This document shows positions 25,889 through 53,146 of a DNA stretch of 54,705 bases, in pieces (position 1 is the stretch's first letter; every line of letters begins with the position of its first letter). The notes beneath the pieces were generated by a model. The model had not been told where the DNA came from. It saw only the letters and a program-made list of their open reading frames with translations, and did no database searches. The DNA is from a virus (taxonomy: Duplodnaviria; Caudoviricetes): positions 1-54,705 of the IMG/VR virus record IMGVR_UViG_3300043444_000172; one strand, written 5' to 3'. The position numbers were made by a program, and so were the translations under genes.

Positions 25889-25985
25889 TAGACCTCCTAA
25901 GGTCAGTTTGGTTGATGAATGTTTTACCATTCATGGTGAACAATCAAGGCCGAGGGACTCTACAAAAATTTGCGAGGCGCTCTAC

Positions 25986-30482: not shown

Positions 30483-30881
30483 TTATTGCAACTTTCCTAC
30501 CGAGGGATAATTAGCAAGAATCGTGTTTTCTTCTAGCCACTGCTCATCGAGAGTGCCGTCAGAGTACTTTATTAGTGCTAAAGATTTGTTATTTTTGTCA
30601 AAGCCGTTTTTATTAGACCAGTCAACAACGTAGTCAATTGACTCGTTGAATAGTCCAGTTATTCTCCAAGTGTCCTCTGGGTGAGAAGCTACCCACACCT
30701 GTTCTTCTTTGTCGTACTCAGATACTCCAAAAGGGTCGTCCGAAATTATTGCTTCGACTGCCTTTGTTTCTGGGTTCAACAAGATGTGAATAGACACTCC
30801 CAGTGTCTTCCTATTAGAGATAGGAGAGTCATCAGCTAGGAGAGGTTCCTTGCTTAGTTTTTCGCTTTTGATGATTGCCAT
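30483..30881 (-). CDS. Hypothetical protein (132 aa)
   Basis: ORF whose stop abuts the protease ATG. Confidence 0.7.
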   Translation of the reverse strand: MAIIKSEKLSKEPLLADDSPISNRKTLGVSIHILLNPETKAVEAIISDDPFGVSEYDKEEQVWVASHPEDTWRITGLFNESIDYVVDWSNKNGFDKNNKSLALIKYSDGTLDEQWLEENTILANYPSVGKLQ

Positions 30882-30899
30882 AATATACTCTATTCTATT

Positions 30900-31274
30900 C
30901 TAATATATCCTGGGACTCTTGTTCTTGTCGTAGTCTTCTCCGCCAAGCCCCATCTCTTCCATAGTTGGAGCCTCGCCCACTACTTGAATGTCCGTGTCTC
31001 CGTACAAAGCATTTGCAGCCCACACAAAGGTGTATGGGTCTGTAATATCGTTGATTAGAAATGGACCTACAGGAGTTACGGCAATTTCATACTCGTAGTT
31101 GCACCACTTGTTAGCAAAATCTTCTAGAGAGTCTGCTATTGCTGCAGCTTTTTCGCTCGTGGGATCAAAAATCAAGTCTAGTTGTCCAGGGACCCAGCTA
31201 ATTTTCTCACCCAGTATGGTCAGGTTAAAAGATTTGGTGAAATCTCTATATGCATCATCATTAGTGAACGCCAT
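30900..31274 (-). CDS. Acidic hypothetical protein (124 aa), candidate immunity/partner protein
   Basis: AAGGAG RBS; immediately downstream of the 2587 aa protein. Confidence 0.7.
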   Translation of the reverse strand: MAFTNDDAYRDFTKSFNLTILGEKISWVPGQLDLIFDPTSEKAAAIADSLEDFANKWCNYEYEIAVTPVGPFLINDITDPYTFVWAANALYGDTDIQVVGEAPTMEEMGLGGEDYDKNKSPRIY

Positions 31275-31284
31275 TGGTATCTCC

Positions 31285-34200
31285 TTATAATCCTAGAATC
31301 TTGGCCAGGTAGTTCTTTACTGCTCTGACTTGAGAAGCAGCGTATCCAGAACCGGAACCAAACTCCTCTGTTAGATAGTCTAGCAACTCAGCGTACTCTT
31401 CTCTAGTTAGATTGGTACCTCCACCAAACTTAGACAAGATAGTAGCCAAGAAACCAGCATCTGGCTTTGACGATTCTTTTTGAAGAATAGACTGTACAGC
31501 TGCACTAGGCTTTGGAACACTAACATCTGCCGCTTGAGCAGATGCTCCGCCACCCGGAGGTGGGTTAATTCCAGAGCCAGAGCCGCCACCAGGACCCTGC
31601 GGTCTATTGGCTAGCGAGAACACCATGCCATAAGCAAAGTCTCTAGCATCGTTGTCGATGCCAGTCTTTGGATCCCTACCGAATGCCATTATGACATTGT
31701 CGATTGGAGTCTGCAAAGTGTCATCGGTGTAGTATCTACCACTCTTTGGGTCGAAGTGGACGTCAGAAATAACTTTTCTAGTGCCGTCAAGCTCGAAGTC
31801 AGTGGTTGCTACAGTCAAACCACGACCTCTAGATGCGATTCCAAAGTCAGACATAATCTCCTGCATCAAAACTGTTGACACTTCAAAGTGTCCGTCGTTT
31901 GGATTTAGGATGTGCTTCTTGTCTTCTGGGTACTGCTTGCTCATGTAGCCCAAAGCTAGTCCAGGTACAGCAAGTGCTCGTTCGCCGCGTCCCATTCTCT
32001 GACCAGATAGGAAGGCAAAGTTTGGCAATGTCTCATCTTCTGTACCAGGGAACATAACTGCTCGGTCGTAGAGCCAAGCATGTTGAAGAGCACCAATGTT
32101 AGGCATGATGTGCTCTAGAACGTGCTGTACCTCATGCACCGCTGCGTCAGTTGCACTCGTGACATCGTCGTACTGCCTGCTTCTCTTGTTAGAGAGGTGT
32201 ACAGCGTAACCATCTGGCTCATCGGTCATATAGGCTCGCTTAACACCAGACATGATGTAAAGCTTCTTATCTTCAGCTTTCAGCTGAGCCAGAAGTCCTC
32301 GAATTACAGACGATGGGAGACCATCAAAGAACTCCTCAAGGGCCTCTTTCGACTTAAATGTGTCAACAGAGCGTAGCTTTAGCTTCCTCTTTAGGCTGTA
32401 GAGGTGGCCATCAAACTCATCAACAGATACATTGTCGAGTTCAACGCCTTCTTCAGCCATCACTTCTCTGTAAGCATCTCTAGCAGCCTTACCAACTACC
32501 GCGCCCATATTCATGTGCTTCTTTGCGGCATCAGTACTTGCTCGCTTAGCAGCTTCGAGTGCTTTCTGCGCAGTCTTAACTTTTGCATTTGTAGCGGGGT
32601 CATTTAGCGCAGTGTATGCATATGCAAACAGCGACTCGTTTTTATCAGTAGCTTCTTCTACTAATGCAGCCAGACTTCCTAGTCGCTTACCAGCGAGTTC
32701 TTTAGCTAACTTATCTCTATCTACTACACCATTAGGTAGAACAAACCCGTCAGCTGCCAACTTAGCCATTGTTGTTTTTCTAGAGGCAGCTGTAGAGAAT
32801 ACCTTTACGCCACTATCGTGGATAGCACGTACATCTTTCTTAGCCTGTTTAGTTGCATCCGAAGCCTTCCGAGAAACATCTGCAACTTCCTTGAATATTG
32901 TGTCGACATCAGCTGCGCTAGAGACATTGAGCTTTTCTCTATTTCTTAGAATGTCAATAAGCTTGTCATCTACTCTAGCTCGGATGTCAGAACCAACTCC
33001 AACAATATCGTTCTTAGCTTCTCTAGCTTCGTCAGTAGGCTTAACAGCGCGGAATTGACTGTCCTTTACTGGAGAGGTGTTGTCATCATTTAGATCTGCT
33101 GTCTTGTGGATAGCAAGAGTTCTTGATGCTGCTCCAGTAGTTGGGTCGATTCCAAGTCCGAGATCTCTAGCAGTCTCTCCTAGTGGAGTTAGAGGCTCAG
33201 CCTGCTTTGGACCTGGAGGCGATGAAGATAGAACCTTGTCAGTAGCAGGGAAGGTTACCTTGCTACCGTCAGAGAACGTAACCTGAACAACTCTGTTACC
33301 ATTCTTTGCTGTTCCAGTTCTAACACCCTTAATGGTCCCCATTCGACCACCATTAGGGTCCCAGAGGGTGTCGCCAGGGTTGACATCAGTTATTGGTGTC
33401 TCCTTTGTTGCCTTAGGGCCTCCAATAATTTGCTCTGCATACTTGGTAAAATCGATTGCACCGAAGTCAATAAAGTCGGGGTCAAAACCAATATTAGGAA
33501 TCGGTTCTCCGGTCTTACCGCTAATAATTTCTCCAGTATCGAAGTTGACAGAGTCACCTTCAGATAGCGAACGCTCTACCACACGCTGACCAAGCTTGAC
33601 AGTTCTTCTTCCAGATGTAGGTTCCTGATCTGGACTTGCTTTAGTTAGGTGGAATGTACTCAGCTTGATTGGGTTGTCAATTCCAGGGAACGATACGTAA
33701 ACATAGTTTCCGTATCCATAGTTTCCACTGTCATCTCGTTCAGCCTGAAGTTTCTGAACTACTCGACCGTAGCAGTACTCCTTTTGGTTGTTACCCCAGC
33801 GGACAACGTCTCCAACCTGAGAAATTTCTCCGCTAACGTAACGGTGAGGAATAACCTTAGTACCAGCGGCAGGAAGTACCTGTCGGTTGATAGAGTGGTC
33901 AATCCTAGCCAAAAGGTGCTCTAGTTCATTCTTGTCTAGATACGGGAACTTCTCCTGAACTGATCTCTTAACTACAGATCTAGCCACTTCTTTAGCTGCG
34001 TTTGTGTCAGGAATGCTTTCTACATAACCAAGAAGTGCCTGGAATGCAGCCAGCGAATCTTTCTGATCCAAGGCATCGTATAGTGAAGGCATTTCTTTTC
34101 GCATAACGCGACGGAAATTTTCACCATTTCTAGAAGTAGAGAGGTTGTGACGCTGATCTCTACCATTTAGTATGATGATCGCTTCTTCTTCTGGAGTTCT

Positions 34201-37200
34201 GAAGACGAACTTGGTGTCATCAAATGCTTTGTCGTTCAAAATAGAAGACAACTTACCAGTGCGAAGACGCTTTAGCGAGCCCTGAATACCGCCGTAGTAG
34301 CGGATGTATTGCTGACGCTGCTTTAGTGACTTTCCAGGAGCCGGGATCTTGCCAAAGTTTCTGTCAAAGAACATGTCAAGAAGACGCTCAACACCCGCAG
34401 ACTTTGTCTTAGCAAGTGGGTTGTCAACTACACCCAGCACACTGTCTAGCGACTTGTGAGGTGAGTAGTGGTTGAACAACTGAGTGTACTCGTCATCTTC
34501 AACAAACTGACCATTCGGGGTCTCAACCAGTTTCTTTGGTGCGTTAGAGTCTCGAAGTGCAGCTACTACACGTAGAGTTCCGCTCTGAGAAGGAACGATT
34601 CGAAGCTCGAAGTCTACCTTGTCACCAGCAAAATCCTTTGAAGTTTCTGGCTCTTCGTAGTTAGAGACTCGGTACCAGACAATTGAACCATCGGGTCTAA
34701 CCTTTGCATCAGGATTTAGCTGAAGCAAAGCGTCGATCATCTGAGAAACTGTTTCTGTTCCACCAGCACGAATAAACTGGTCGCGCTTTGCTGGAGTTAT
34801 GCCAGCTCTTCCGACATCCTTTCCGTCGTCTTGACGGGTAGGGTTACTGTTAAACAGTGAAGCACTCGATCCAGGAGGAAGTAGTGTAACCTTTCCTGGT
34901 TTTCTTGGCTGAGGGTTTCTAGGCTTTCTTAGCTTCTTAGAATCATTTGCAGACAGACTTCTACCGTTGTTTAGCTTGTCAAGAGCGGCCATAAGGGTAG
35001 ATAGGCTGACGTCGTTGTCTTCGATAGCGTCAAGCATTGCCTGAGTCTTTATGATCTCGTCAAAGACTTCGTCACCGCTTGCGCCATTGTCGATCATCTT
35101 TGCCAACTTGCCAGTTGGATCAATGCCTAGGTCGTTAATTGCCTTTTTAGCATTTTCTCTGTTGTTCTTGACACCATCGTTGCGAGTCTTCTTGAAGTCA
35201 GCTTCTAAGCTGCTTAGGTTGCTGTACTTCTTAGACGGTACAGAAGAGTCACTTCTGTTTCTTAGAAGAACGCTTCCATCGCTGTTTAAGGTAATTTCCC
35301 AACGAACGCCTTCGATCTTCTTGCTGTACTGCTTACGATCTCCGGCACCAACTCGCACCCAACCATCTAGGAAGTTAGGTGGAACGTTACCACCATCAGA
35401 AGGGCCCTGTCTGAGGACAGTCACCGGACCTTCGTCCTTGATGCGACCCTTTCGGTCACTAGAGCTTAGAGCAGCACCAATCTTCTTTTTCTTGGTTGGA
35501 TTGACTTCCGCCATTTCTGCTTTACGCTCTTCGCGGTAGTCCCAGGCGTCCATACCAAAGTCTTTAGGACGATCTAAAATCTCGTTAGCTAAAGTGAGAC
35601 CTTCTCTTCCTTCAAACTGACGAACCCAGTCTAATGTACCTAGGTAGAGTCTCTTTCTTGCTCGAGATGCGGCAACATAAGCAAGTCTAAGTGCATCTGC
35701 ACCAAGAGGATCTTCTTTTGATTCACTCTGATCGCCTTCAGGAGTTGCCCAGTCTTCACCGATGCTAACGTCATCCCACTCAAGGCCTTTGGCTCGGTGA
35801 GCTGTAGAAACAATTACATCTGGAACTTCTTCATTGATGTTTAGTCGGTTAGGAATTAGAGCAGCAAGCTCATCTAATTCTTTTTGACGCTCGTCGTCAT
35901 CATAGAATAGTTTTGCCCAGCCGGTAAATGAAGATCTACCTCTTTCTTCATCATTCCATGAATAGCCGCGGTCTTTTAGAATTTGACCGAATTTTTCTCC
36001 ATTTACATAGGCCAAGGTACCGTCGTTATTGAATACCATGGTTCCATTGTCAAATACTTCGTAGTCTAGAGGCTTTCCATCTGCAGCAATCCACATGCGA
36101 CCAGATGAACCTTTTGTAGCATCTAGCGTACTGTCAACATCTCCAACGTCAGAGCGGTCAACAATGATGTTGTCAATGATTTTGCCAATGTTTTCAAATT
36201 CCCCCATGTCGTAGCCTTTTTTCCACCTAGCAACGATTGACTTAGGGTCACGCTTAGCGGCACGAGCCCAGTCGCCCATGTTTTTAAGTCGACTAAAGTC
36301 ACAGTCTTGGATAGGGGATCCATCAGGGAATCTAGGGCCCTTCTTTCTTTCAGGGTCGCTAAACTCTCTTTGTAACCACTGAACGTAGTAGTAGTTGCTT
36401 CGAAGTTCGTTGTAGAAAACGCTTAGAGCACCAACTTTTTTACCCTCGACCATGAATTCGATGATGTCCTTCATGCCCTGCCAGTTGGATCGGGTAAGGT
36501 GGGCTCTGGACGGGCCAAATTCTAGATCGTCTTCGTCTTCTACAATCGCGCCTTCGGAGTCAGTACCGATCATTCTTGTATTGTGACCAAGTATGTTTAA
36601 GAATCCGTTTGCTGGGCCAGTTAAAGCGTCACCAAAACGATACGTCATGGTCAGTGGAATTACTGCATCGGCAGTTGCCTTTGCTTCCCTAAGAGCATTT
36701 TCACTTCCTCGGAAACCGAAGATGTTCTGGTTAGTATCACCAACATATGAGATCTGTAGGCGTCCCTTGTTACCCTTTAGGACTGTAGCCACAGTAGGGT
36801 TTGTGTCCTGAGCCTCATCCATGAGGATAACCTTTACTGGCTTACCTTTTACTGTAAGTTTAGATAAGTCTGGGTTACCTAGCTGCCATAGCTTGAGGTA
36901 GTGATCGTGATCGATCTTGATACGCTTTTCGCCAACAAACTTCTTTTTTACTTTGTCGTAGTAGCCAGGCTTAATGTCGCTCTCAATGTTGCCCCAGAAC
37001 TTTTCGGCCCACTTCAGCCACTTGGGATCAATCTTGTATAGGCCAGGACCGTCTCCAAAGTCTTCCTTAGGCATGCCAAAGAACTTAGAGAATCCTGATA
37101 AAACATGATCACTTGATAGTTTTGTAGCATTTGAGTTGCAGTACTCAGTAATAATCTTTCTAACAAGCATCGCGGCTGCTTCAGCATCAATAGGCTGCTT

Positions 37201-39048: not shown

Positions 39049-39100
39049 CTAGATCGGGTCCTTCTTTAACAGGCAAAATATTGAATATCTAGTATGATTT

Positions 39101-39116
39101 CTACTAGTAATTTTAC
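39101..39116 (-). promoter_or_regulatory. Putative promoter, copy 2 of GTAAAATTACTARTAG
   Basis: Minus strand GTAAAATTACTAGTAG about 53 nt upstream of the 2587 aa gene. Confidence 0.6.
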
Positions 39117-39147
39117 ACGTTGTTTAGTTAGTGTGATTTGGGGGGAA

Positions 39148-39969
39148 TTACAGGGTGTCGAGATCTTTGATCGAATTAACAGTTGCTAGAAACTCATTCC
39201 ATTTTTTAGACTGAGCGTATCTCGCGGTGTCAACAAAATCTCTAGTTAAGAAGTCCGAGGCGTCCTCGATCCACTTAGCATTAGAGTCAAGAGCATCGAA
39301 GATCTCGGTGGACTTTGCACCTTCGTCAATCATCTTGGCGATGCTTCCAAACTCGTCATACTCTTTGAGGTTGTTTTTAGCAATCTCGGCGAAGTTGATT
39401 GGCTCTTCAAGGTCGACTAGGTCATCTAGTGCGTCTGAAAGCTCGTTGTACTTAAAAGCAACCAGCTGCGAATCAAAGTCATCATTTTCTGGTTTTGCTT
39501 CCGCGAACTCTCTTAGTGCGGTGAACACAGTGCTCGACTCTAGGTAGCGTCGTATCTGCTCGATTGAGTCTCCACGCTCGATGCGGTACGCTAGCTCGCC
39601 AGTCGGGTCAAGTAGGTTGCCTTCATCGCCATTTATAACAAACATGTCTAGAGCAGCAACTAGGTTTAGGCGAGACAAGTCGTACGCACTGTAGTTGAGT
39701 TCTTTTGTAGGCTTAGACTCTTCAACTTCAAATGTGGCAACATTTCCAAGTCGCTCAGAAACGACTCCAGAAGCAACTAGAGCAGAGAGTCGAGCCTTAG
39801 AGTGTAGGTACTCGATGGAGTCTTTGTCATAGCTAAAAACTCGGTGGATTAGGCGGGATTCCCGTGGGTCAAGCGAGTATAGCTCTTCAAATAGAGCCTT
39901 AGCACCACTCTCTCCATAGAAAAAGTTAGATCTACGTGAAAATTCGTTATTGAATTCTGCATCTAACAT
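39148..39969 (-). CDS. Acidic helical hypothetical protein (273 aa) with two internal repeats
   Basis: TAATG-coupled to the upstream gene; DPTGELAYRIERGDS and DEFGSIAKMIDEGAK. Confidence 0.75.
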   Translation of the reverse strand: MLDAEFNNEFSRRSNFFYGESGAKALFEELYSLDPRESRLIHRVFSYDKDSIEYLHSKARLSALVASGVVSERLGNVATFEVEESKPTKELNYSAYDLSRLNLVAALDMFVINGDEGNLLDPTGELAYRIERGDSIEQIRRYLESSTVFTALREFAEAKPENDDFDSQLVAFKYNELSDALDDLVDLEEPINFAEIAKNNLKEYDEFGSIAKMIDEGAKSTEIFDALDSNAKWIEDASDFLTRDFVDTARYAQSKKWNEFLATVNSIKDLDTL

Positions 39970-41858: not shown

Positions 41859-41872
41859 TTCTCTATTGTACC

Positions 41873-42097
41873 TTAGTCTGGTTGCTTGGATAGTTTTGCT
41901 AATTCCCTCAGGTACTCGTAAACTTCAAGTCGAAGGTCCTTGGGCATTGCTTTGGAAGCAGGAAGAGTTAAGAATTCTTCTACACTGTCTGAGGTAAATC
42001 CGATTACGCTCAAGAGGCCATCTAGTGTTGTAGGTAGGTCCCAGTAACGACCTTTGGTCCAATCAGAATTTTTTAAGTTTCCATCTATGTCGATCAT
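41873..42097 (-). CDS. Small hypothetical protein (74 aa), candidate immunity/partner protein
   Basis: Tightly packed ORF downstream of the ART-rich giant gene. Confidence 0.65.
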   Translation of the reverse strand: MIDIDGNLKNSDWTKGRYWDLPTTLDGLLSVIGFTSDSVEEFLTLPASKAMPKDLRLEVYEYLRELAKLSKQPD

Positions 42098-42101
42098 TTG
42101 A

Positions 42102-42290
42102 CTACTTATCCCTTTCCGGCTTAGGGTTTATAAAATAAGGCTCGTTTAAAAACTTCTGTAGCTCGGGGGATAAGTCATCTTCAGACTCGGATGTCTCAAT
42201 CTCGACTGCCCAGTCAAAACCTATATCTAGAGGCACCTTGTATTTGTTGAAAAGGCGTGCTGCTTTTCTGCTTAACTCAGGATTTGCCAT
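42102..42290 (-). CDS. Small hypothetical protein (~62 aa), candidate immunity/partner protein
   Basis: MANPELSRKAARLF... overlapping the end of the giant gene. Start uncertain (ORF track gives 42308). Confidence 0.6.
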   Translation of the reverse strand: MANPELSRKAARLFNKYKVPLDIGFDWAVEIETSESEDDLSPELQKFLNEPYFINPKPERDK

Positions 42291-45200
42291 TGATAAATAC
42301 CTTTCCACGATTGAGTATGATTGTGTAATACTCGTTGTCAGGAGTTAGAGGAACTTTAAATCTGATTGCATCAATACCGAGCATGATGGCAATATTTGTG
42401 TAATCAGTCTCGTTGAAAAGTCGCCACTCAGCATCCTGAGATTCTTCGAAGGTGACCCCAGACTTATCGTATCCTCTAAAAAACTCTTGTAATTTTTCTG
42501 TAGCCCACTCACGTAGATCAGTAGCCTCATCGAAAGAAATTACATTAGCATCAGACATTAGTTTCATTTCCATAATACGATCTTCTCGATTAGAGTCATC
42601 ATCGCCTGTGTAAGTAAATGTAGTTTCTTTTTTATTAGTAGAGTAAGTTCCATTTCCAAAATAACCCTCTCCGGCAAACGGTGTATCCGAGGTTATATAG
42701 TCATCCATAAACTCCGCTGAAGTAAATCCACGATAGATAGACTCGCCGGACGCGGCATCGAACTCTTCTTGGCTCAGAACCTGAGGCTTATCGTTAAATC
42801 CTGATTTTTCCAGGAATACTGATTGAAGTACATTTCCCCTAGATTCGTCATAGTCTTCGTCGGCTTCAGTGAATATGTCTTTAATCTTCTTGTACCAGTT
42901 TTTAAACCCAGGTTCTATGCGCTCTTTTTTCTTCGTAGCTGTCTCTAGTCCGGTTTGTGCATCCCAATCCTCTTGGACTTTTAGATCCTTCTTAACTACA
43001 GAATCCTTTAACTCACGGTTTCTCATTACTTGAATTAGGTTATCTTCTTTAACGGCACCTACGGCTTCTACCTTCATTTCGCCGCCAATGACAACCATTT
43101 CTCTCTCGTCATAGGAGCCGACACCAGTAAATGAGTTGGATAGGATTTGCTCTACCGGGATTACGCGTCTCAGTAGGACTGCCCCCTTGTGATCGTCCTC
43201 TGGGTTAAACTTATCTATACCAGTTGCCTCTGAATCGTATCCTCCAGTAGCAAACCAATAAGCATGACCGTCAGACGTACTCCAAGAAGACAGAGGTCTT
43301 GACTGGACATCAACTTCCGTGAGTTTGTCATCAGACAAAGTCTTACCTAGGGACGCATCATCGATTCCTCTATAGAGGACAACTTCCGTAACACCGGCTT
43401 CCTTGAAACGTTTCTGGGTCTGCTCGTACTGAGCCTGTAAAAATGCTGAAAGAACGCCACCGTACTCTTGCTTAATTTTTTCAACTTCGGCTTTAGTCTT
43501 TGGAGCGGAGTTCCAATCACGGGCATTCTTAGTATCAAAAACTACTTCAGCTATGTCTTGAATAGCTAATGAACGAATATTACTTCCGTTAGACGAAGTG
43601 GCCCAGTCAGTAATCAATGTAGAGGCTGCCATAGTTGCACGTTCAAATTCTGTCAGCTCTTTATATAATTTAAATTCTGTAACTGCATCTTCGGAAGAGT
43701 TAGCTTTTTCAAGTATCTTTCGTACGTCTTCCGTAGTGAAATTAAAATCACCAGTGCTTGACATAGCTTTTATATCGGCGTCATTAAGAGGGAATCTACG
43801 TAGTGCCCTAGCTAGAGGAACAAAACCAATTGCCCCATCTGTTACCATAATTTGACCAAACGGAACACTACCCTCCCATTCGGTAACGTATGGATCATTT
43901 GTGCCAGTATCATACGTGCTCACCAGGCTTTGGTTGAGTGCATCAAGCTGCTCGATGCTGATACCGTTGTCCAACATGCTCTTAGCAGTTTCAGTTGCAA
44001 CCTCGGATTTTAGTTCTCCTGGAGTCTTGTCGGTCTTCCAGAACTCTTCTGAACTGCCGTCTGTAGTTCTAAGCGTCTTGCTCTCTACAGCTTTTTCAAC
44101 TTCGGGTTTTTCAGGCTCGGCTTCTGTAGGTGCTTCTCTTTGCAACATAGGGTCAAATGTCCCTACATGGCGAATCTTTACCTTAGTAGGCACATCTGGG
44201 TCGTCACTCTTCTCAACCGAAACAACTTCATATCTACCAGCAGATACAAACTCACCAGGAATGGCCTGAGGGTCGAAAGCAATTAATGGAAGCGACCTTG
44301 AACCAGGCTCAAGCTCATACTCAACAGCAATACCTCCGCCGGCAATATCAGAACGCCTCATCTCCCAATACTGCTCAGCAGCGGAACGTACAACAGAAAA
44401 AGATGAGAAGGGGAGCTCGATAGTTGCTCCAGGCTGGTAACTATCTAATGTTGCCTGGTTTGTTCTAATGCCTCTAAACAAGGATTCGTTGATTTCGGGA
44501 GATGCCTGAATTAGCTCCAGTCCAGCAATGATTTCTCTAGTTTTGCTTGGAAGTTTGGTGATGTCCTTTGGATTTATCTCCGTATCACCCTGAAGCAGCT
44601 CTTTAAAAGCGGCATTGGTGTCAGAAACATACTCAAAACTTGAAGGCCAGCCTTGAACAAACCATGCAGCGTATTTATCTCGGAACTCTAGGTCTTTAGC
44701 TGCATCACTCTGAGGGTCAGAGATGATGTTGCCTTCTTCATCAATCTCCTGCGGGGTATCCCAGCCTGCTTGACGAGCAGCCTCGACTGCAGTCTCTAAA
44801 ATGTCCTGCAAAGCAGGAGTACCGCTACGTACATCTATAGGGTCCATCTTTCGACCATAAGCACTGATTGCTCTACTATCTGCTTCTTCTTTTTCGTCTA
44901 ATCCAGTCAGGGCTTCTGGCTTACCCTTCGGCTGCAATTCAGCTTCAACAAAGTAGTTAAAAAAACCGTTCTCTTCGCCATCTTCGTCAATGTGAGGCAC
45001 TTTACGAATACCAACAATTTTTAATTCTGACCCTCTTGGCAGAACTACTTCGTCTTCCAAACTCGCATAACCATATCCAGCCCTCGGGACCCCTAGAGCT
45101 TTACTGCCAGCTGGCAGGTTAATCACCCAAAACGAGGTGTTTCTCATGCTAGGTTCGGAAGCTTTGATAGCTCCATCTCCAGCCCCGAGACCAGGTCCAA

Positions 45201-48200
45201 AACTACGTAGTGCAATATCTTTATTGCTGCTAGTAGACATAAAACCTGGATCAGAGAATACATCACCTGGGTTTAAGCTCTCTAGTAAATCAGTCATCGT
45301 AACGTCTTTATCTTCAAACTTACCTAGGTCAGTCATCCCTCTAAATACATAAGTACCTCTGGAGATGTCACCATATGTGTCAATAAGTTCGTCTAGATTA
45401 GCAATCTTTTCTTTGACATCTTCGACTTTTTCTGGACTCATGTCTTCAGGCCCGTAGCGGAGAAGGTTGTTGAAGTTTCTAAACTGGGTACTAGCGTAGG
45501 CTTGTAGTGCAGCGTGTTGGTCGCTAGGAATATCAGACTGCTCGAAATTACGAGGAACTTCACCATCATCTACACTGTCAATGTCTAGGTAGTCGCCATC
45601 AACAAAAGCATCTAGAAGTCGGGACTCACCCTTACCTGTTGTTAAACCTTCTTTAGGCTCCCAATCGGTGGTTGAAGCCTCTGGGGTAGAGTCTGAAGAC
45701 TCCTTACTTGCAAGTTCTGGGTGGCAAATAGTACATTTACTACTCTGACCATTGTGTAGATTGTTCTCGTTGAGCGATCCTGGGGGGCCATCGACTACCG
45801 GTAGGTGGCCTAGATGTTCTAATTCACCAGGCTTAATTGTACGTTCTACATATAAGTTATCACCATTACGTGTATAAGGATCTATCCGGAGCTCGTCTTT
45901 AGGGACTGATATACGGAATATATCTGCACCATCGCCAGCTTCACCAGATGTATATCCATTTGCTAGAAATACACCGTATCTAGTTTTAGTGTAGTTATCT
46001 GTTCCAACCTTATCCGTGATTTTTGGTTTAATTCCATTTTTTTCAATTTCATCAAACCTTGCCGGAGGAGCCGAGTGTCTAAGTTCCTTTATTTCGATCT
46101 TATCTCCGGTACGTTTTTCCATATCGTCAACGAATTCAGTCGGGCTTACCTTATAGGATGTATAGGACCCACCACTCAACTTACTCATATATTCAGTAAG
46201 CGCCCTCATACGGCGATTATGTTCTTTCCCCTCTTCTTCAGTGACATCCCTAGCTCCAGCTTCACCAGAAGAGGCGTACCAACGAGCTTTTCTTAGTTCA
46301 TCAGGAGTGAAGTGGTAATCCTTTCCATTGAAGATGTAATCTATACCATCCTCTTCACCAGGTATAAGAAGTTCTGAAGACTTTTCTTCTGTTTCCGTAG
46401 GTACTGAATATTTTTCTGGATTTTTTTCAATATCATCCAGTATGCTCTGTACCGAAGGAGCATTCTCTTCAGTACTATCAGTAAGTTTATTTTTATAATC
46501 AATTAGATATTGACGACGAGCCTTAAGTTTTTTCTTGAGCTCCCTATTATCATTAGGGTCAGAAATATATTGATCAACAAGCTCATCAATACGCTCGGGA
46601 GTAATATTTTCTACTCTATCGATACTTTCGTTCTCTGCCTCAGGTGTTATGTCTTCAAAAACTACAGAGGTAGCCATATTTTTAGTCTCGTCCTTAAGAC
46701 TCTCGATCTCCGGGACAGTGTCCCCGAACTCTGCACCCTTTCGCTTACCCTGCGCCCTATATAGTAGAGAACCTCCAGAATCGATGCGTACAGGCTTATT
46801 GTCTTTATCAAAAGATAGGTTATCTAAACCTAGACCAACTACGTCCCAGTTTGCGAGCCATGCATCAACAGCAAATCCATCGTGAGCCGAATCAGAGACT
46901 AGACCAGAGCTACCATCCCTAATCTTATCCATATATGATGTAAGACCAGACTCTACCCAGTCCCTGTAGGTCACCGGGAATTCATCAATTACACCTTCTT
47001 TAACTTCTAGAGCATCAATCCTTGCTTCTCTATATAGTGCAGATGCTAGGCGCTCATTGTCACCGCGCTCTTTAGCCTGAATCTTTACATAGTACTGCTT
47101 ACCAGTTTTAGGGTCTTTGTAGATACCGCCTGGGTTGGAGCCTAGGTTGCCAGAAACCTTCTCGAAGTTGGAGAAATCGAGCGGCTGATCAGCGGTATCT
47201 ACTTTAGGCTCTTCAGTTAAATCTTTAAATCCATCCCAGCGGATTTCTTCACTAAGAATCCATTTTCCTAAGTTGTAATCCCCCGTCTTGAGATTGGCAA
47301 CATCTAATGGAGTTGGGTAGTCATTGTCGCCAAACTTAGAGCTCTCAAACTTTGCCTTGATATTTCTTAGGACCTTAAGTATGTCTTCCTTGTCTTTTTC
47401 CGGGAAAGAGCTACCTGGCTGCGTGAGTATGTTGATGTTGTAGTCAATATTAGATATAACATTCTTAGGCTCGGTCTTCCACTGGAATCCAGCCTTGGCC
47501 CATGCATATGAACCACTTTGCTCTCCGGCCGTAAGTTCAATTTTTGAAATACCTAGATCTTTGTACACCTCTTCGGATAGTTTTCCGAATTCTGTACCAA
47601 AACCTTTTCCGCGATATTCTGGTTTAAGGCTGATTCCGTCGTGAACTACAGAGTAAGTGCCATCTTGGTTCTTATAGATATAGCGACTAAATCTACCTAT
47701 AATATTGTCGTCTTGCTCTACCACCCCAGAGAACTCAACTACATCAATATCTTTACCATTAATAGTTTTTGTTATCTTTCGACCGGTAGTTACTCTTACA
47801 TCAAAATCACCAATTTTTCTATTTCCAAGTTTTTCCTCGAAAATAGAGAGAATCTTTTTATTATCTTCTACAGCAAAAATATCTTCTACAGACTCTACTG
47901 GTTTTTCTACTTCTTTAGACGTAGTTTCTTTAGCTTGTCCGTAATCAAGATCTATGCGTAAGATCCCATCCGAGTCCCTGTAAACATTAGTTACAGTGAA
48001 TTTTGGCATCATGGGAAGTAGAACTTCTTTTTCTAATCCAAATACTGTGTTGTCGAACTCGAATGGGGTTCCAGTTGCTCCGTCTTTAGTGGTTATTTTC
48101 ATAACTACCGCCGAGTTTGTTCTGTCTTTGTTTGAGCCTAGGGTAGCAAATTCTTCAGCTTTTACTTGGTCCAGAGTCGTGGACGTGAACCATCCTGGGC

Positions 48201-50280
48201 TGGTTAGTCTATCGCCAGGCTTTAGGTTAGATAGATACTCCTCCCAGTCGGCAGCGTCCTCACCCATTGCACCAAGGTCTAACCCCCTATATAGAACCGT
48301 ACCTTTTGGTAGCGGCTCGGTAGAAGTTAGTTGATCTAAGTTATCTATATGCTTTTGTAGCTCTGCCTGCTCTTCTTGACTTCGACTTGCAGTGTTGTAT
48401 TTGTCTTCCATGAAATTCTTTAGTTCCATGTAGCCCCAGCCGCGATACATAGATATAGCGTCTTTTTCATCCTGAGTGCGTTCTGGAATAGGGAGATCTG
48501 GAATGCCACTTATATCTGAATAGGTGTATTCAAGATCTTCTGGTATGAACTCTTCTGGAGTACGTATGCTCGATCCAAGCAGTGGGTGGTACGACTCGCC
48601 ATCTATTTCAACCACTACTGGTGCATAGCGTCTAGGTCTCATGTCGCGGGCTGCTAAAAGCCTAGAGGTATCCATCTCTGGATCTTTAAATAAGTATTTA
48701 CCTTCACCCTTGTCGTAGATTAAAGTCACAGGAGAGGTGAAGCCGTTCTCCGCTATCTCTTTCTTCTGAGCCTCTACAAGATCCTTGTTGTATGTAAAGT
48801 TTTCTTTATCGAGATCTAGCACATCCTGGGCATTAACATAGCCAACAGCACCAAGCTTGCTACCTGGAAGAGTGGCATTGGTGGCAGCCGAATTTTTAGT
48901 TGATTCGACATCTAAGTTTGGATCTATTTTGGAATATTTATTTTCTGCATCCGCAATTTCTTTTCCGCCACTGTCGACTATTTTTTGTTTGCGGTAGAAC
49001 CCTTTTTCCTCTAAAACATTGTCTATATTGTCTATGTCTTCAGTTTCGAATATCTTCGCTACTTCTGGATCATCCAGTATGTCTTTAACATAGAGCTTTA
49101 ATTTTCTGAGCTCGAGTCTGTCCCAGGTGCTTAATTCTTTTTTCTCACCCTGGGCTGGTTTTTCTGGTTCAACGTCTAAGCGCTTTAGACCCTCCCACTC
49201 GACGTTGCTATTTAAAACTTCTTTGCCGATAGGCAGATCTGCAATCTCTTTTGGAGTTGGGTAGTTTGGAGAGCCAGGCTCGTTATTATCAAAGCGTTCT
49301 AATATGCCTTTAAGAGCTTCCATTTGGTCTGGATCATATTTCCAGGCCTCGCCTAGCATCTTTCTAATGCTGCTGATTACAACAGATGGCTTTCCATTCC
49401 AGTCATATCCAGCCTTGGCCCAGGTGTAAGCGCCATTTTCATCTGCTGCAGTTATTTCTATCTTAGAAATACCAAGTTTTTTATACATTGCTTCGGAAAG
49501 TTTGCTGAACTTTGTACCAAAGCCAGTGCCTCTACTCTCTTCTTCGATATTTAGAGAGGTGTGTCCAGCGCTATATGATCCGTCTTTGTTTTTAGTTATT
49601 CTGCGGAAGAAGTATCCGACTTTATTGTCATTTTCATCTAGAATCTCTCCGTTGACGAATACATCATCCGGGTAGCCATCAGACTTTACAATGCTGACGT
49701 TTCTAACTTTTAGCTTTCCATAGTCAGTGTTTTCGAGTAGATCTACTATCTCTTTTACTGTCTTGTTGTCGAGATTTCTAGTATTCTCATTCGCTGGTAG
49801 AGCCAGTAAGTCTTCGACCGTTCCGGTTATGGAGTCAGCGTTCGGCTCGGGCTCAGGCTCTGTTGTCTTGGAAGAGTCTTTTTTGTTTAAAGCTGCTTTA
49901 GTTGCTTTAGCTATTCGCTCGTAGTCTTCATCAGGAATGATGGCATCGACTACCTCAAACTGGGTTGACGGGATTGGCAGATCGATGTCGCCTAGAATCG
50001 GGTGGCCTTCTATGCGAATCAATGCTACGTTAGGCGCAACAGCGTCGATAATTTTTCCATGGCCGGAAACGCGGCCTATGTTTTCTAGCTCAACGTCGAA
50101 TAATGCGTTGCCATACATTTTGGCAAATCGCATGAAACGGTCTTTTAGCTGCTTACGCCAAAAGCCTTTGTTAGCACCCTCTCCGCCTGGAATGTCCGGC
50201 CCGACATCTGCAACCAGTCCTTGGGGCTGAGCAGAAGAGGAGTTACCAGCACCTAAGACGTCTCTTAGGTATTCAGACAT
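42277..50280 (-). CDS. Giant polyvalent effector protein: 2 GNAT-like, ParB-like, kinase-like and up to 6 ADP-ribosyltransferase-fold domains
   Basis: R-S-E motifs LYRG/FTSTT/EKEVLLP, VFRG/FMSTSS/EDEVVLPRG, LFRG/FSSFS/GEFV and LYRG/LSSWST/DEREMV; RGxGFG...WAKAG twice; DAWLANWD..RIDSG. ATG at 50280 follows the Dps stop. Confidence 0.85.
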   Translation of the reverse strand: MSEYLRDVLGAGNSSSAQPQGLVADVGPDIPGGEGANKGFWRKQLKDRFMRFAKMYGNALFDVELENIGRVSGHGKIIDAVAPNVALIRIEGHPILGDIDLPIPSTQFEVVDAIIPDEDYERIAKATKAALNKKDSSKTTEPEPEPNADSITGTVEDLLALPANENTRNLDNKTVKEIVDLLENTDYGKLKVRNVSIVKSDGYPDDVFVNGEILDENDNKVGYFFRRITKNKDGSYSAGHTSLNIEEESRGTGFGTKFSKLSEAMYKKLGISKIEITAADENGAYTWAKAGYDWNGKPSVVISSIRKMLGEAWKYDPDQMEALKGILERFDNNEPGSPNYPTPKEIADLPIGKEVLNSNVEWEGLKRLDVEPEKPAQGEKKELSTWDRLELRKLKLYVKDILDDPEVAKIFETEDIDNIDNVLEEKGFYRKQKIVDSGGKEIADAENKYSKIDPNLDVESTKNSAATNATLPGSKLGAVGYVNAQDVLDLDKENFTYNKDLVEAQKKEIAENGFTSPVTLIYDKGEGKYLFKDPEMDTSRLLAARDMRPRRYAPVVVEIDGESYHPLLGSSIRTPEEFIPEDLEYTYSDISGIPDLPIPERTQDEKDAISMYRGWGYMELKNFMEDKYNTASRSQEEQAELQKHIDNLDQLTSTEPLPKGTVLYRGLDLGAMGEDAADWEEYLSNLKPGDRLTSPGWFTSTTLDQVKAEEFATLGSNKDRTNSAVVMKITTKDGATGTPFEFDNTVFGLEKEVLLPMMPKFTVTNVYRDSDGILRIDLDYGQAKETTSKEVEKPVESVEDIFAVEDNKKILSIFEEKLGNRKIGDFDVRVTTGRKITKTINGKDIDVVEFSGVVEQDDNIIGRFSRYIYKNQDGTYSVVHDGISLKPEYRGKGFGTEFGKLSEEVYKDLGISKIELTAGEQSGSYAWAKAGFQWKTEPKNVISNIDYNINILTQPGSSFPEKDKEDILKVLRNIKAKFESSKFGDNDYPTPLDVANLKTGDYNLGKWILSEEIRWDGFKDLTEEPKVDTADQPLDFSNFEKVSGNLGSNPGGIYKDPKTGKQYYVKIQAKERGDNERLASALYREARIDALEVKEGVIDEFPVTYRDWVESGLTSYMDKIRDGSSGLVSDSAHDGFAVDAWLANWDVVGLGLDNLSFDKDNKPVRIDSGGSLLYRAQGKRKGAEFGDTVPEIESLKDETKNMATSVVFEDITPEAENESIDRVENITPERIDELVDQYISDPNDNRELKKKLKARRQYLIDYKNKLTDSTEENAPSVQSILDDIEKNPEKYSVPTETEEKSSELLIPGEEDGIDYIFNGKDYHFTPDELRKARWYASSGEAGARDVTEEEGKEHNRRMRALTEYMSKLSGGSYTSYKVSPTEFVDDMEKRTGDKIEIKELRHSAPPARFDEIEKNGIKPKITDKVGTDNYTKTRYGVFLANGYTSGEAGDGADIFRISVPKDELRIDPYTRNGDNLYVERTIKPGELEHLGHLPVVDGPPGSLNENNLHNGQSSKCTICHPELASKESSDSTPEASTTDWEPKEGLTTGKGESRLLDAFVDGDYLDIDSVDDGEVPRNFEQSDIPSDQHAALQAYASTQFRNFNNLLRYGPEDMSPEKVEDVKEKIANLDELIDTYGDISRGTYVFRGMTDLGKFEDKDVTMTDLLESLNPGDVFSDPGFMSTSSNKDIALRSFGPGLGAGDGAIKASEPSMRNTSFWVINLPAGSKALGVPRAGYGYASLEDEVVLPRGSELKIVGIRKVPHIDEDGEENGFFNYFVEAELQPKGKPEALTGLDEKEEADSRAISAYGRKMDPIDVRSGTPALQDILETAVEAARQAGWDTPQEIDEEGNIISDPQSDAAKDLEFRDKYAAWFVQGWPSSFEYVSDTNAAFKELLQGDTEINPKDITKLPSKTREIIAGLELIQASPEINESLFRGIRTNQATLDSYQPGATIELPFSSFSVVRSAAEQYWEMRRSDIAGGGIAVEYELEPGSRSLPLIAFDPQAIPGEFVSAGRYEVVSVEKSDDPDVPTKVKIRHVGTFDPMLQREAPTEAEPEKPEVEKAVESKTLRTTDGSSEEFWKTDKTPGELKSEVATETAKSMLDNGISIEQLDALNQSLVSTYDTGTNDPYVTEWEGSVPFGQIMVTDGAIGFVPLARALRRFPLNDADIKAMSSTGDFNFTTEDVRKILEKANSSEDAVTEFKLYKELTEFERATMAASTLITDWATSSNGSNIRSLAIQDIAEVVFDTKNARDWNSAPKTKAEVEKIKQEYGGVLSAFLQAQYEQTQKRFKEAGVTEVVLYRGIDDASLGKTLSDDKLTEVDVQSRPLSSWSTSDGHAYWFATGGYDSEATGIDKFNPEDDHKGAVLLRRVIPVEQILSNSFTGVGSYDEREMVVIGGEMKVEAVGAVKEDNLIQVMRNRELKDSVVKKDLKVQEDWDAQTGLETATKKKERIEPGFKNWYKKIKDIFTEADEDYDESRGNVLQSVFLEKSGFNDKPQVLSQEEFDAASGESIYRGFTSAEFMDDYITSDTPFAGEGYFGNGTYSTNKKETTFTYTGDDDSNREDRIMEMKLMSDANVISFDEATDLREWATEKLQEFFRGYDKSGVTFEESQDAEWRLFNETDYTNIAIMLGIDAIRFKVPLTPDNEYYTIILNRGKVFINGKS

Positions 50281-50282
50281 GG

Positions 50283-50735
50283 TTATCGAGTACCGAGTGA
50301 AGAGCGGAGCTGCCAGCCCCACTTCTTGTGCATATCGTCACGGCCGGCTAGAAAATCAGCAATGCCCTGCTCGTTGCACATCGATGCAAGCTCGAAAGCT
50401 CCAAGCACACATGCATTTAGAGATGTGTTGATGTTGACTAGAGACTCGAGCATCTCGACGCAGTCGCCAAAAAGACGAGGCTCGTTTCCAATGCATGTCA
50501 TCTCAACGAAATCAGTTAGGAAGTAAGGAGCGTCATATCCGAGTTTGCGGATGCTTTCAGCGAGCGGGTCAATGGCACTCTCGAAGTCTTCGTAGATTTC
50601 ACCGAAGAAGTCATGCATCTGAGTAAACTCGACGCCCTTAACGTTCCAGTGGTAGCCCTGGGCGATAGCCTTTGCAGTTACTACGTCAGAAAGTAGGTGG
50701 CTAAGCTTCTCTACTAGTTCAACTTTGTGTTCCAT
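50283..50735 (-). CDS. dps: Dps family ferritin-like DNA protection protein
   Basis: YHWNVKG.EF..MH.FF.EIY......D.LAE.IRKLG and C-terminal HKKWGWQLRS. Confidence 0.92.
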   Translation of the reverse strand: MEHKVELVEKLSHLLSDVVTAKAIAQGYHWNVKGVEFTQMHDFFGEIYEDFESAIDPLAESIRKLGYDAPYFLTDFVEMTCIGNEPRLFGDCVEMLESLVNINTSLNACVLGAFELASMCNEQGIADFLAGRDDMHKKWGWQLRSSLGTR

Positions 50736-52508: not shown

Positions 52509-52790
52509 TCAACGATTCGCCAGTAGACCAATAATTGCAGATATGGACAGTACTAATGATACCACATATACAATTGCTGGGACTAGCAGGTAAGCGACTA
52601 CGAACAAGATGGAGATATAGAATCCAGTACACCAGTCGCAGGTGATTAAGTATCCAAAACCCTTAGATGGTGGAAACTTTTTCCAGATTCTTTCTCGTAC
52701 CGACTCAAAAACGGTGTCGGTTGTTATAACTCTAGTGACTCTAAAGGCAGCAAGAGCAAGAATTGCAAAAGTTAGGGCGTCCAGCGTCAT
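52509..52790 (-). CDS. DUF1360-like small membrane protein
   Basis: LAAFRVTRVITTD...GYLITCDWC plus hydrophobic helices. Confidence 0.75.
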   Translation of the reverse strand: MTLDALTFAILALAAFRVTRVITTDTVFESVRERIWKKFPPSKGFGYLITCDWCTGFYISILFVVAYLLVPAIVYVVSLVLSISAIIGLLANR

Positions 52791-53146
52791 TATTTAGCTT
52801 TCAACGTGTTTAAAGTTCGGGTTGGGTTCCAACTTCTAAGTCTAGACCCACATCCGCAGTTTGTGTCGCGCTTGAAAGCGAGCATTTTGCCACTTTTAGT
52901 GACAATTTTGCTCTCACCCTTCAAATCTTTCTCAAAGATATCATATTCTTCTTGAAAAATCACCCTCGCACCCTCTGGAGAGTCGACTGCAACCATAATT
53001 AGGTCGCTGTCGATGACAATTCGACACTTGTCGACCATAAATGAGCCCTCAGTGGGCGGGGCAACTGTAACTTCTTCTAGTGTTTCGACCAATCCAGGTG
53101 CAACTGCAACAAGAATAGACGGAAATACGTCAAAAATGATTCTCAA
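52790..53146 (-). CDS. Hypothetical protein (118 aa) with CGCG motif
   Basis: Overlap-coupled to the terminase stop and to the next gene; C-terminal NCGCGSRLRSWNP. Confidence 0.65.
   Translation of the reverse strand: MRIIFDVFPSILVAVAPGLVETLEEVTVAPPTEGSFMVDKCRIVIDSDLIMVAVDSPEGARVIFQEEYDIFEKDLKGESKIVTKSGKMLAFKRDTNCGCGSRLRSWNPTRTLNTLKAK

Follow-up and report, generated by a model that had tools for sequence, protein, structure and literature searches.

The window, by which we mean the whole stretch of DNA analysed here, is the 54,705-nucleotide (nt) IMG/VR virus record IMGVR_UViG_3300043444_000172, a 54.7-kb piece of a viral contig estimated to be about 33% complete. The source phage is a siphovirus of freshwater Actinobacteria. 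This report concerns the cassette that lies between its portal gene and the gene for a protease/scaffold polyprotein. Reading from the portal, the cassette encodes a Dps-like protein, a giant protein A, open reading frames (ORFs) of 68 and 74 amino acids (aa), a 629-aa modular protein, a 273-aa ORF, a second giant protein B, and ORFs of 124 and 132 aa. Neighbouring genes are 0-18 nt apart or overlap, with the exception of 99 nt before B, and all genes from the large terminase (TerL) to the major capsid protein (MCP) are on the minus strand. An earlier reading of the letters alone (the sequence-only reading) had described a tightly packed, co-oriented interval with Dps, two giants, a Cys/ParB protein and small ORFs, running from the portal to a prohead protease. 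The ORF layout confirms this arrangement. A protease does stand at the downstream flank, but it is only a domain within a 1490-aa polyprotein.

Both giants begin with a common module of about 100 aa, which also heads a large set of other proteins in related phages. This module, the proteins fused to it and their position next to the portal are our main subject. We considered and ruled out that the layout is an assembly artefact, because freshwater metagenome contigs from other studies cover the genes for B, the 273-aa protein and the 629-aa protein contiguously in single pieces of 8410, 6668 and 6214 nt. Promoter-like and terminator-like sites in 30450-50400 number 24 and 20, compared with 24.9 and 17.6 in shuffled sequence, and so show no excess. 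The cassette proteins contain no hydrophobic or transmembrane segments and no signal peptide.

Two giant proteins with a common N-terminal module

Giant A is very acidic (net charge -172) and has a size of about 290 kDa. The ORF opens at a GTG (Table 1). Translation more probably begins at the ATG at 50280, immediately after the stop codon of Dps, which gives 2667 aa. The Pfam family ADPrib_exo_Tox (PF03496) matches A in two stretches with 108.9 bits against a cut-off of 23.4 (whole-protein E 2.6e-31). These are two ADP-ribosyltransferase (ART) domains. The best stretch, at residues 1597-1784, is ART2; PF01129 also matches weakly at 710-793. Both domains carry the R-S-ExE motifs of the exoenzyme family and, judged by these residues, are catalytically plausible. 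Comparison of A with itself in windows revealed two internal repeats, one pairing residues 145-403 with 792-1056 and the other pairing ART1 (596-800) with ART2 (1575-1795); self-BLAST of the whole giant proteins found no repeat. Within the first pair, residues 227-319 and 867-959 are 53% identical (E 1e-32). The later copy contains a GNAT domain, and the duplication therefore gives A a second GNAT-like unit.

Other parts of A are less clear. A kinase-like segment is a lead only: among named Atlas clusters, LepB_N, PI3_PI4_kinase and HipA_2 come closest to it, each with 0.91-0.92, and hmmscan at E<=5 gave it no Pfam match in A itself. The C-terminal third is 74% identical to the C-terminus of the A homologue in related locus L010. 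It contains a DRAT match at 2299-2357 that is below threshold (E 0.12). A phmmer search of the PDB returned no match for A. With two ARTs, a GNAT domain and a GNAT-like repeat, A holds at least two distinct effector-type domains in one polypeptide, as polyvalent proteins do.

Giant B is also about 290 kDa and acidic (net charge -55). Its superfamily 1 (SF1) helicase scores above threshold with both PF00580 (53.7 bits, cut-off 23) and PF13361 (37.9 bits, cut-off 25.6), and matches phrog_1967 at 2.8e-58. Helicases were its only phmmer matches in the PDB, among them FBH1 at 2.9e-11. Outside the helicase, B matches no family in Pfam or PHROGs, so that, unlike in A, the helicase is the sole confirmed domain. 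The sequence-only description of both giants as packed with enzyme domains thus suits A, and B less so.

BLASTP of A against B gives a sole significant match, between A 39-136 and B 6-106 (E 2e-5), the next best having an E of 0.43. The shared module is about 100 aa long and consists of a conserved basic helix, with the consensus G-A-N-x-G-F-W-R-x-Q-L-R-D-x-x-G-x-W-x-x-M-G, and a small SH3-like barrel; a low-complexity linker follows. An AlphaFold2 model from a 21-sequence alignment has a mean predicted local distance difference test (pLDDT) score of 70.7, with a core at 75-91 that shows a short helix and then a five-stranded barrel.

A profile hidden Markov model (HMM) of the module, built from five sequences, was searched against 1.84 billion representatives and matched 218 clusters at E<=1e-3, 77 of them at <=1e-10. 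The proteins in these clusters range from 94 to 5432 aa. Of 162 proteins analysed, 147 have the start of the module among their first 50 residues, 13 at 150-320 and 2 elsewhere. Full-length B orthologues are headed by it too. Among cultured relatives, it occurs after the portal in Pumpernickel gp82 (E 8.5e-10) and in a 466-aa protein of DSL-LC01 (E 6.9e-7), and directly after the portal in Arthrobacter phage Atuin gp71, a protein of 3113 aa (E 3.2e-13). A tblastn search of cultured phages found five records with single modules as queries and one with ART2.

The module matched no family in Pfam, NCBIfam or PHROGs, and Foldseek found no match to its fold in the PDB at E<=1e-3. A wide search with VIA gave KOW, Tudor and SH3-like barrels with a best Z of 8.0, a level that is common for this tool. 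BFVD yielded a single 805-aa viral protein with E 7.3e-4 and, besides it, an 'SH3-like domain protein'. Structure prediction of the module together with one portal subunit (alignments A2 and A5) scored 0.00 in two runs, which were made without controls. A scan of 185,579 genomes, one per prokaryotic species, with narrow module patterns confirmed none of its 117 candidates. We also considered a prohead-protease cleavage site, [ILV]P[ED]x, at the end of the module and dropped it, as only 76 of 162 modules have the motif. A and B have two copies each and the protease polyprotein has three, near a rough chance estimate, and the MCP has none.

In Atuin, one half of the module is found on a different protein. 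Atuin gp74 (799 aa), encoded just before the protease gene, is homologous to parts of the window's protease/scaffold polyprotein, so here the helix motif sits on a protein expected to lie within the prohead. Its N-terminus matches the helix half of the module (HMM E 1e-8; hhalign 92.8%, E 4e-7), and the barrel is not shared.

The sequence-only reading had held that the cassette has no recognisable MuF domain and uses a loading signal of another kind. The first part is borne out by three comparisons. Hmmscan found no MuF domain (PF04233) in A, B, the 629-aa and the 273-aa proteins at E<=5, nor in the five small cassette ORFs at E<=0.01. A six-frame scan of the whole window with PF04233 gave no match at E<=10 and was positive in 8 of 14 control genomes. 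The module profile aligned to SPP1 gp7 with an hhalign probability of 0.2% (E 0.32). MuF was likewise absent at E<=1e-3 from the 61 module-bearing relatives scanned with Pfam. For the second part, the N-terminal module common to A and B now supplies a concrete candidate, and it is proposed here as a candidate only.

A fixed slot with changing cargo

We compared the best 80 of more than 596 IMG/VR portal relatives, which are 72-92% identical to the window's portal, with up to 10 kb of sequence on each flank. TerL, the 118-aa ORF, DUF1360 and the portal are present wherever the contigs reach. Of the 56 loci whose sequence continues for at least 3 kb past the portal, 55 encode a module ORF in that downstream part, and in three loci another stands upstream of the terminase. 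The slot between portal and protease is fixed across portal identities from 92% down to about 47%. In a module search of IMG/VR, 37 of 45 loci were beyond the portal-anchored set, and 34 of these 37 have homologues of the portal, Dps, protease or 629-aa protein within 10 kb. As far as sampled, the module is restricted to one head type. Related complete or near-complete records are 125-194 kb long.

The length of the interval varies. From portal to protease it measures 4.9-9.5 kb in 27 environmental loci, a range limited by the 10-kb flank and including several near-duplicates; it is 7.6 kb in Pumpernickel, 13.6 kb in DSL-LC01, 20.3 kb in the window and about 22.5 kb in the closest long relative. 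Most often a single module protein of about 900-1500 aa fills it. In the window and in record G001 there are two, of about 2600-3600 aa, and genomes carry one to two copies of the module overall. Fixed flanks with varying cargo were the outcome that the sequence-only reading had predicted for such a comparison, and the related IMG/VR loci show it. In a distant cultured relative, Gordonia phage GMA2, the gene after the portal, orf10 (locus L083, 7981-10632), is annotated 'putative structural protein'. The module HMM finds no module in it, and it has a weak match to Acb1-like proteins (2H phosphoesterase, anti-CBASS) with E 7.9e-4, below the family cut-off.

Cargo was surveyed in module proteins chosen by length and rank from 150 listed matches, so the sample is not random, and the 5432-aa protein was left out for its size. 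ART is found in 23 of the 61 proteins scanned. Pfam assigned ADPrib_exo_Tox to 19 of the 45 proteins of 600-1600 aa, and MPTase-PolyVal, ArdC-N, UvrD and DUF3626 to one each; MPTase-PolyVal and ArdC-N occur together in one relative. The 16 giants of 1721-4706 aa contain ART (4), UvrD (3), Zeta toxin, RNase_T, PI3_PI4_kinase and DUF3626 (2 each), and PIF1, NUDIX and WYL (1 each). Atuin gp71 joins ART and a UvrD helicase behind the module in a single chain.

Homologues of A from phages with portals 87-92% identical show how readily this cargo is rearranged. The module always comes first, and the other segments are permuted or lost. These homologues have 1819, 2819 and more than 3400 aa, compared with 2681 aa in A. 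Residues 379-786 of A, for example, match 1553-1964 of the L010 homologue, and the kinase-like segment appears at 535-765, 1445-1681 or 554-797 in different relatives. Change is also seen between populations: in other lake populations the 2234-nt segment 45669-47902 of A is replaced by about 1505 other bases with exact junctions. One X6 contig joins 45668 to 47903, and two contigs from another study, of X4 and X8, break at both points. At the 3' end of A (42552-43013), X4 and X6 contigs have further skipped or divergent stretches of 166 and 271 nt, and X3 contigs end at the same two places.

In distant B orthologues (about 30% identical overall), the module is the best kept part, at 40-54% identity compared with 22-44% elsewhere. 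In the close orthologue P0012 the cargo is 76-80% identical and the module 45%. The histories of handle and cargo are therefore separable.

Companion genes and flanking head genes

Coordinates of the cassette features and of the flanking head genes are collected in Table 1. The Dps-like protein is below the NCBIfam Dps equivalog cut-offs (39.9 bits against 114, 38.9 against 170 and 34.8 against 300) and is therefore a diverged member of the type. Its motif HW..G..F...H / D..AE is kept in 53 distinct homologues; we take the H...H / D...E pattern to be the ferroxidase-centre residues. The gene adjoins the portal in 71 of 73 related loci with at least 500 nt downstream. A ferritin-fold DNA-binding protein is unusual as a fixed member of a head-gene block; the ferritin-like cargo of HK97-fold encapsulins offers a comparison.

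The 629-aa protein had been read as a Cys/ParB protein. It is Cys-rich, with 11 cysteines all in residues 74-282. ParB support is weaker at the sequence level: ParBc_2 (E 0.25, 11.9 bits) is below the Pfam threshold of 23.6. It appears at the level of fold. An AlphaFold2 model is confident at residues 320-400 (pLDDT 73-88, the remainder low), and there Foldseek matches the ParB structures 6sdk (E 1.1e-4) and 6t1f_B (root-mean-square deviation, rmsd, 2.7 A over 75 columns), as well as sulfiredoxin 6ky4 (rmsd 2.0 A over 76 columns, TMt 0.65). DUF5824 (PF19141) scores 29.3 bits against a cut-off of 25. Members of the aligned family may lack the Cys-rich or the ParB block or have it at another place in the chain. 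Homology of the family to the protease/scaffold polyprotein was considered, as both touch phrog_2859, and was rejected at an hhalign probability of 0.4%. In the complete record G002, a fragment resembling the 629-aa protein adjoins a gene for a 481-aa protein with module and ART. Homologues of the 629-aa protein occur in 32 of 56 loci with at least 3 kb downstream of the portal. Dps and the 629-aa protein had both been counted as part of an arsenal; these frequencies show them instead to be conserved fixtures of the locus.

The small ORFs fall into two linked sets: the 68-aa, 74-aa and 629-aa genes accompany A, as in L010, and B is preceded by the 273-aa gene and followed by the 124-aa and 132-aa genes, as in L042.

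Table 1. Features of the cassette and of its flanking head genes (window positions; residues are those of the respective protein)
Feature	Position	Strand	Basis or remark
TerL, T4-type large terminase	53143-54528	-	PF03237/PF17289
118-aa ORF	between TerL and DUF1360 (52509-53146 spans both non-terminase ORFs)	-
DUF1360 membrane protein	52509-52790	-	two hydrophobic stretches
Portal, upstream fixed flank	50739-52493	-	phrog_776 at 1.7e-105
Dps-like ferritin-fold protein, 150 aa	50283-50735	-	PF00210, 54.5 bits, cut-off 24.5
Giant A, polyvalent protein	42277-50322	-	2681 aa from GTG
A N-terminal module	49867-50211, residues 38-152 (P0001)	-	helix motif GANKGFWxxQLxD, then SH3-like barrel; HMM 1.1e-35
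A repeat unit 1, GNAT-like segment	49114-49890, residues 145-403	-	internal repeat with 792-1056
A ART domain 1	47923-48537, residues 596-800	-	YRG677 / STT714 / EKE764; second ADPrib_exo_Tox stretch
A repeat unit 2, GNAT domain	47155-47949, residues 792-1056	-	PF00583 at 866-946, 27 bits, cut-off 20.7
A kinase-like segment, lead only	46513-47235, residues 1030-1270	-	recurs at other positions in homologues
A strain-variable segment	45669-47902, about residues 807-1552	-	between the ART domains; metagenome contigs
A ART domain 2	44938-45600, residues 1575-1795	-	FRG1659 / STS1696 / EDE1756; phrog_3895
A C-terminal third	42280-44505, residues 1940-2681	-	three further candidate R...S...E-like motif sets, motif scan only
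68-aa ORF, travels with A	42102-42308	-	86% identical homologue after A homologue in L010; no family match
74-aa ORF, travels with A	41873-42097	-	80% identical homologue in L010; no family match
629-aa modular protein	39969-41858	-	Cys-rich (HiPIP-like) region; ParB/Srx fold about 320-400; DUF5824 439-518; helical C-terminus
273-aa ORF, precedes B-type giants	39148-39969	-	homologues directly upstream of B-type genes in L008, L042, L050, L106-L109; no family match (Pfam, PHROGs, NCBIfam)
Giant B, 2587 aa	31285-39048	-	full-length orthologues of 2394-2720 aa; independent contigs
B N-terminal module	38638-39048, residues 1-137	-	HMM 2.6e-65; BLASTP against A
B SF1 (UvrD-type) helicase	35632-37623, residues 476-1139	-	PF00580, PF13361, phrog_1967
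B HExxH motif, putative zincin	32122-32136, residue 2305	-	motif only
124-aa ORF, follows B-type giants	30900-31274	-	37% identical homologue after B homologue in L042
132-aa ORF, follows B-type giants	30483-30881	-	41% identical homologue in L042
1490-aa protease/scaffold polyprotein, downstream fixed flank	26010-30482	-	phrog_18402 at 7.6e-60
Protease domain of polyprotein	27315-27905, residues about 860-1056	-	phrog_18402
MCP	23930-25930	-	phrog_777, 1.5e-84; NF033847, 1.5e-101

The 3' side of the MCP gene holds a head-tail adaptor, the major tail protein, the tape measure and minor tail proteins, followed by DNA polymerase, helicase and exonuclease. With head and tail genes from terminase through tape measure on its flanks, the cassette therefore lies inside a siphovirus morphogenesis block. 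The portal matched 877 phage records. The protease/scaffold polyprotein is present in all five long relatives and is homologous to 'capsid maturation protease' genes of Atuin (gp75) and DSL-LC01; phmmer found no match for it in the PDB.

Several further features of the flanks were seen. After its protease domain the polyprotein has a tandem repeat of about 75 aa ('DGSFPIRNVEDLKNA...RHIxKRA...LIPDxWK', residues 1079-1243, 26754-27248), which recurs in Atuin gp74. Its protease region (residues 666-1073, 27258-28487) is matched at 9e-94 by phrog_859, a family labelled 'portal protein'; the label probably derives from fused or mis-annotated members, the real portal being the phrog_776 match. Residues 1-190 of the MCP (25361-25930) include, ahead of the capsid-profile match, a very acidic N-terminal stretch of about 150-190 residues with a high content of Glu, Ala and Pro. 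This may be a delta-domain or scaffold-like region. DUF1360 and the 118-aa ORF separate the terminase from the portal, have homologues in almost every one of the 80 related loci and may take part in portal assembly at the membrane. Terminase ORFs are 2.4-3.5 kb in some relatives (L024, L025, L075, L099, L110) compared with 1.4 kb in the window, and Pumpernickel (L002) has a 2364-nt 'terminase' beside a separate 'terminase, ATPase domain' gene, which suggests an intein or inserted gene.

Proposed role, alternatives and known systems

By analogy with known head-carried proteins, the giants of the cassette may be head-internal effectors that are co-injected with the DNA, and the shared module may be the determinant of their incorporation. 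We put the chance of this at about even. The module would bind a conserved component of the head, such as the portal, the scaffold/protease polyprotein or the capsid interior, and the proteins bearing it would be built into the assembling prohead. It would thus do the job of the MuF domain in SPP1-type heads or of the N-terminal targeting peptide of T4 Alt and internal proteins. After ejection the cargo would act early on host targets: it would ADP-ribosylate and acetylate host proteins, and its helicases would work on DNA, in the service of takeover or counter-defence. As only the handle would have to fit the head, the cargo would be free for shuffling, duplication and replacement. Iyer 2017 (PMC5512222) argues that enzymes for takeover, when produced late, are of use chiefly if they travel into the next host cell, as T4 Alt does (PMC9958956).

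A broader version is possible, though we would lean against it at present. It makes the module a lineage-wide capsid-loading and delivery address for any fused polypeptide, from about 350 to more than 5000 residues, and the slot a plug-in bay for takeover or counter-defence enzymes exchanged even between strains of one lake. Dps and the Cys-rich ParB-fold protein could then be co-packaged partners.

A number of observations weigh against co-injection by way of the module. We infer packaging and injection solely from where the genes lie and from analogy. Large size and acidity set the giants apart from the small basic internal proteins of T4 and are awkward both beside packed DNA and for exit through the tail channel. 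The module fold is a generic SH3/KOW/Tudor-like barrel and is therefore silent on partner and function. Close relatives conserve the cargo better than the module, which fits a swappable handle and also a domain that evolves fast and has some other role. No Pfam domain was assigned to the in-slot module proteins of three long relatives, L019, L045 and L069, so that 'effector' is not established for a typical member. Some module genes are also found away from the slot. A 481-aa protein with module and ART is distant from head genes in locus L095 (9995-11440), which belongs to record G002 (gene at about 13.3 kb). In this complete record of 153.7 kb, about 108 kb separate the gene from the portal in record coordinates, or about 45 kb in the opposite direction on a genome with joined ends. 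Module genes of L104 and L105 have no head gene within reach.

Four other explanations were considered. The proteins could be packaged through some other feature, with the module acting in DNA-end binding, as a portal plug, as an ejection pilot or in oligomerisation. Nucleic acids or peptides are common ligands of SH3/KOW/Tudor-like barrels, the helix has a basic, Arg-rich composition within an otherwise acidic protein, and SPP1 gp7 binds both DNA and portal. Atuin gp74 has the helix only, so the two halves may act differently. We still think such a role somewhat unlikely: a strict N-terminal position on more than 200 unrelated proteins, together with one head type, is what a targeting tag predicts; the findings as a whole fit both readings. 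Alternatively, the proteins may not be in the virion at all, being late cytoplasmic enzymes or toxins released at lysis, and their position among head genes would then reflect co-regulation. They might include 'Trojan horse' ARTs against grazers: Kavagutti 2019 (PMC6802176) described a VIP2-like ART in 24 freshwater phages, some assigned to Actinobacteria, and proposed a role against protists. The exoenzyme-type R-S-ExE signature of the ARTs in A agrees with this, as do the module-and-ART genes outside the head cluster. We nonetheless regard it as unlikely. The gene position stays constant over the whole range of portal identities, the proteins lack signal peptides and transmembrane segments, and the family scans of the cassette found no B-type translocation component of a binary toxin. 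Other cargo (helicases, ArdC-N with the MPTase zincin, NUDIX, RNase T and Zeta toxin) has bacterial or nucleic-acid targets. Since VIP2-like ARTs are just one of many cargoes on a common handle, a bacterial target is favoured over the anti-grazer reading.

A mainly structural role would make the giants an inner body or core organising the DNA, or an ejectosome that crosses the thick actinobacterial envelope in the manner of T7 gp14-16. Their size, their adjacency to the portal and the precedents of the N4 virion RNA polymerase and the Burro virion protein (see below) speak for it. Length and domain order, however, vary greatly between near-identical heads, hydrophobic segments are absent, genomes have one or two copies, and relatives manage with a single protein of about 900-1500 aa, all of which makes this role improbable. 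The locus might finally be an ordinary MuF polymorphic-toxin locus in which MuF is too diverged to detect. Its gene is placed like SPP1 gene 7 and the MuF-like genes of Microbacterium phages (PMC7302621), and ART is a known MuF cargo. Against this stand the missing PF04233 in the cassette, the six-frame scan and the 61 relatives, the very low hhalign probability with SPP1 gp7, and the nature of the module itself, which is N-terminal, about 100 aa long and built on a beta-barrel core. We judge this last explanation highly improbable.

If the module is a loading tag, it would explain how widespread large actinophages of freshwater and soil arm their virions without MuF, and the injected content could be read from sequence in more than 200 protein clusters. 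It would also provide a compact handle for protein delivery into Actinobacteria, with Arthrobacter phage Atuin and Microbacterium phage Pumpernickel as cultured relatives. The strain-level replacement of a 2.2-kb block in A represents natural turnover of effector domains and could be tracked in lake time series.

The sequence-only reading called the cassette the best candidate for an undescribed system. Its concept is already in print (PMC5512222, PMC9958956, PMC7302621), and the N-terminal handle is new: because multi-enzyme proteins encoded next to the portal and proposed to be injected have been published, the new element is the handle and not the concept. The module was not found as a common handle in the family libraries or in the open literature searched, and the same literature yielded no paper on this lineage's portal-protease slot.

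One of the closest known systems is T4, whose core contains about 40 copies of Alt and whose protease removes small N-terminal peptides (PMC9958956). There, as proposed here, an N-terminal determinant sits on unrelated proteins (Alt and IPI-III), and the genes are near portal, protease and scaffold. A head-carried ADP-ribosyltransferase is injected with the DNA in T4; here the same is proposed. The determinant differs, being a folded domain of about 100 aa with a linker here and a short peptide in T4. The giants are 4-8 times larger and multi-enzyme.

MuF proteins (SPP1 gp7, Mu gp30) resemble the giants in a positional feature only, the gene directly after the portal. MuF toxins share the scheme of a constant head-associated domain with variable cargo, including VIP2-type ARTs (PMC5576092), and the MuF-VIP2 fusions of Microbacterium phages of clusters EH and EJ are predicted virion components (PMC7302621). 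In the present lineage the constant domain is the N-terminal SH3-like module and not MuF, the cargo is much bigger and each chain combines many domains, the phages are large, and no prophage copy appeared in one narrow genome pattern scan.

Similar in content are the phage polyvalent proteins, multi-domain conflict proteins encoded beside portal-terminase genes, for which injection has been proposed and in which an ART may stand next to a GNAT domain in one chain (Iyer 2017, PMC5512222). A has the same makeup, with several effector domains, ART beside GNAT and a portal-terminase packaging context, and one module-bearing relative carries the polyvalent pair MPTase-PolyVal and ArdC-N. The link to the head differs: in the available text on polyvalent proteins it is made by MuF or portal fusions or by gene neighbourhood (PMC5512222), and here a shared N-terminal module would make it. 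Giant products encoded beside the portal are also known from the N4 virion RNA polymerase and from Microbacterium phage Burro, where a protein of about 250 kDa in purified virions was assigned to gp27 (>4400 aa; PMC7302621). Those phages are podoviruses that each encode one giant, with a different or unknown function; in the present lineage a common N-terminal module stands in front of changing enzymes.

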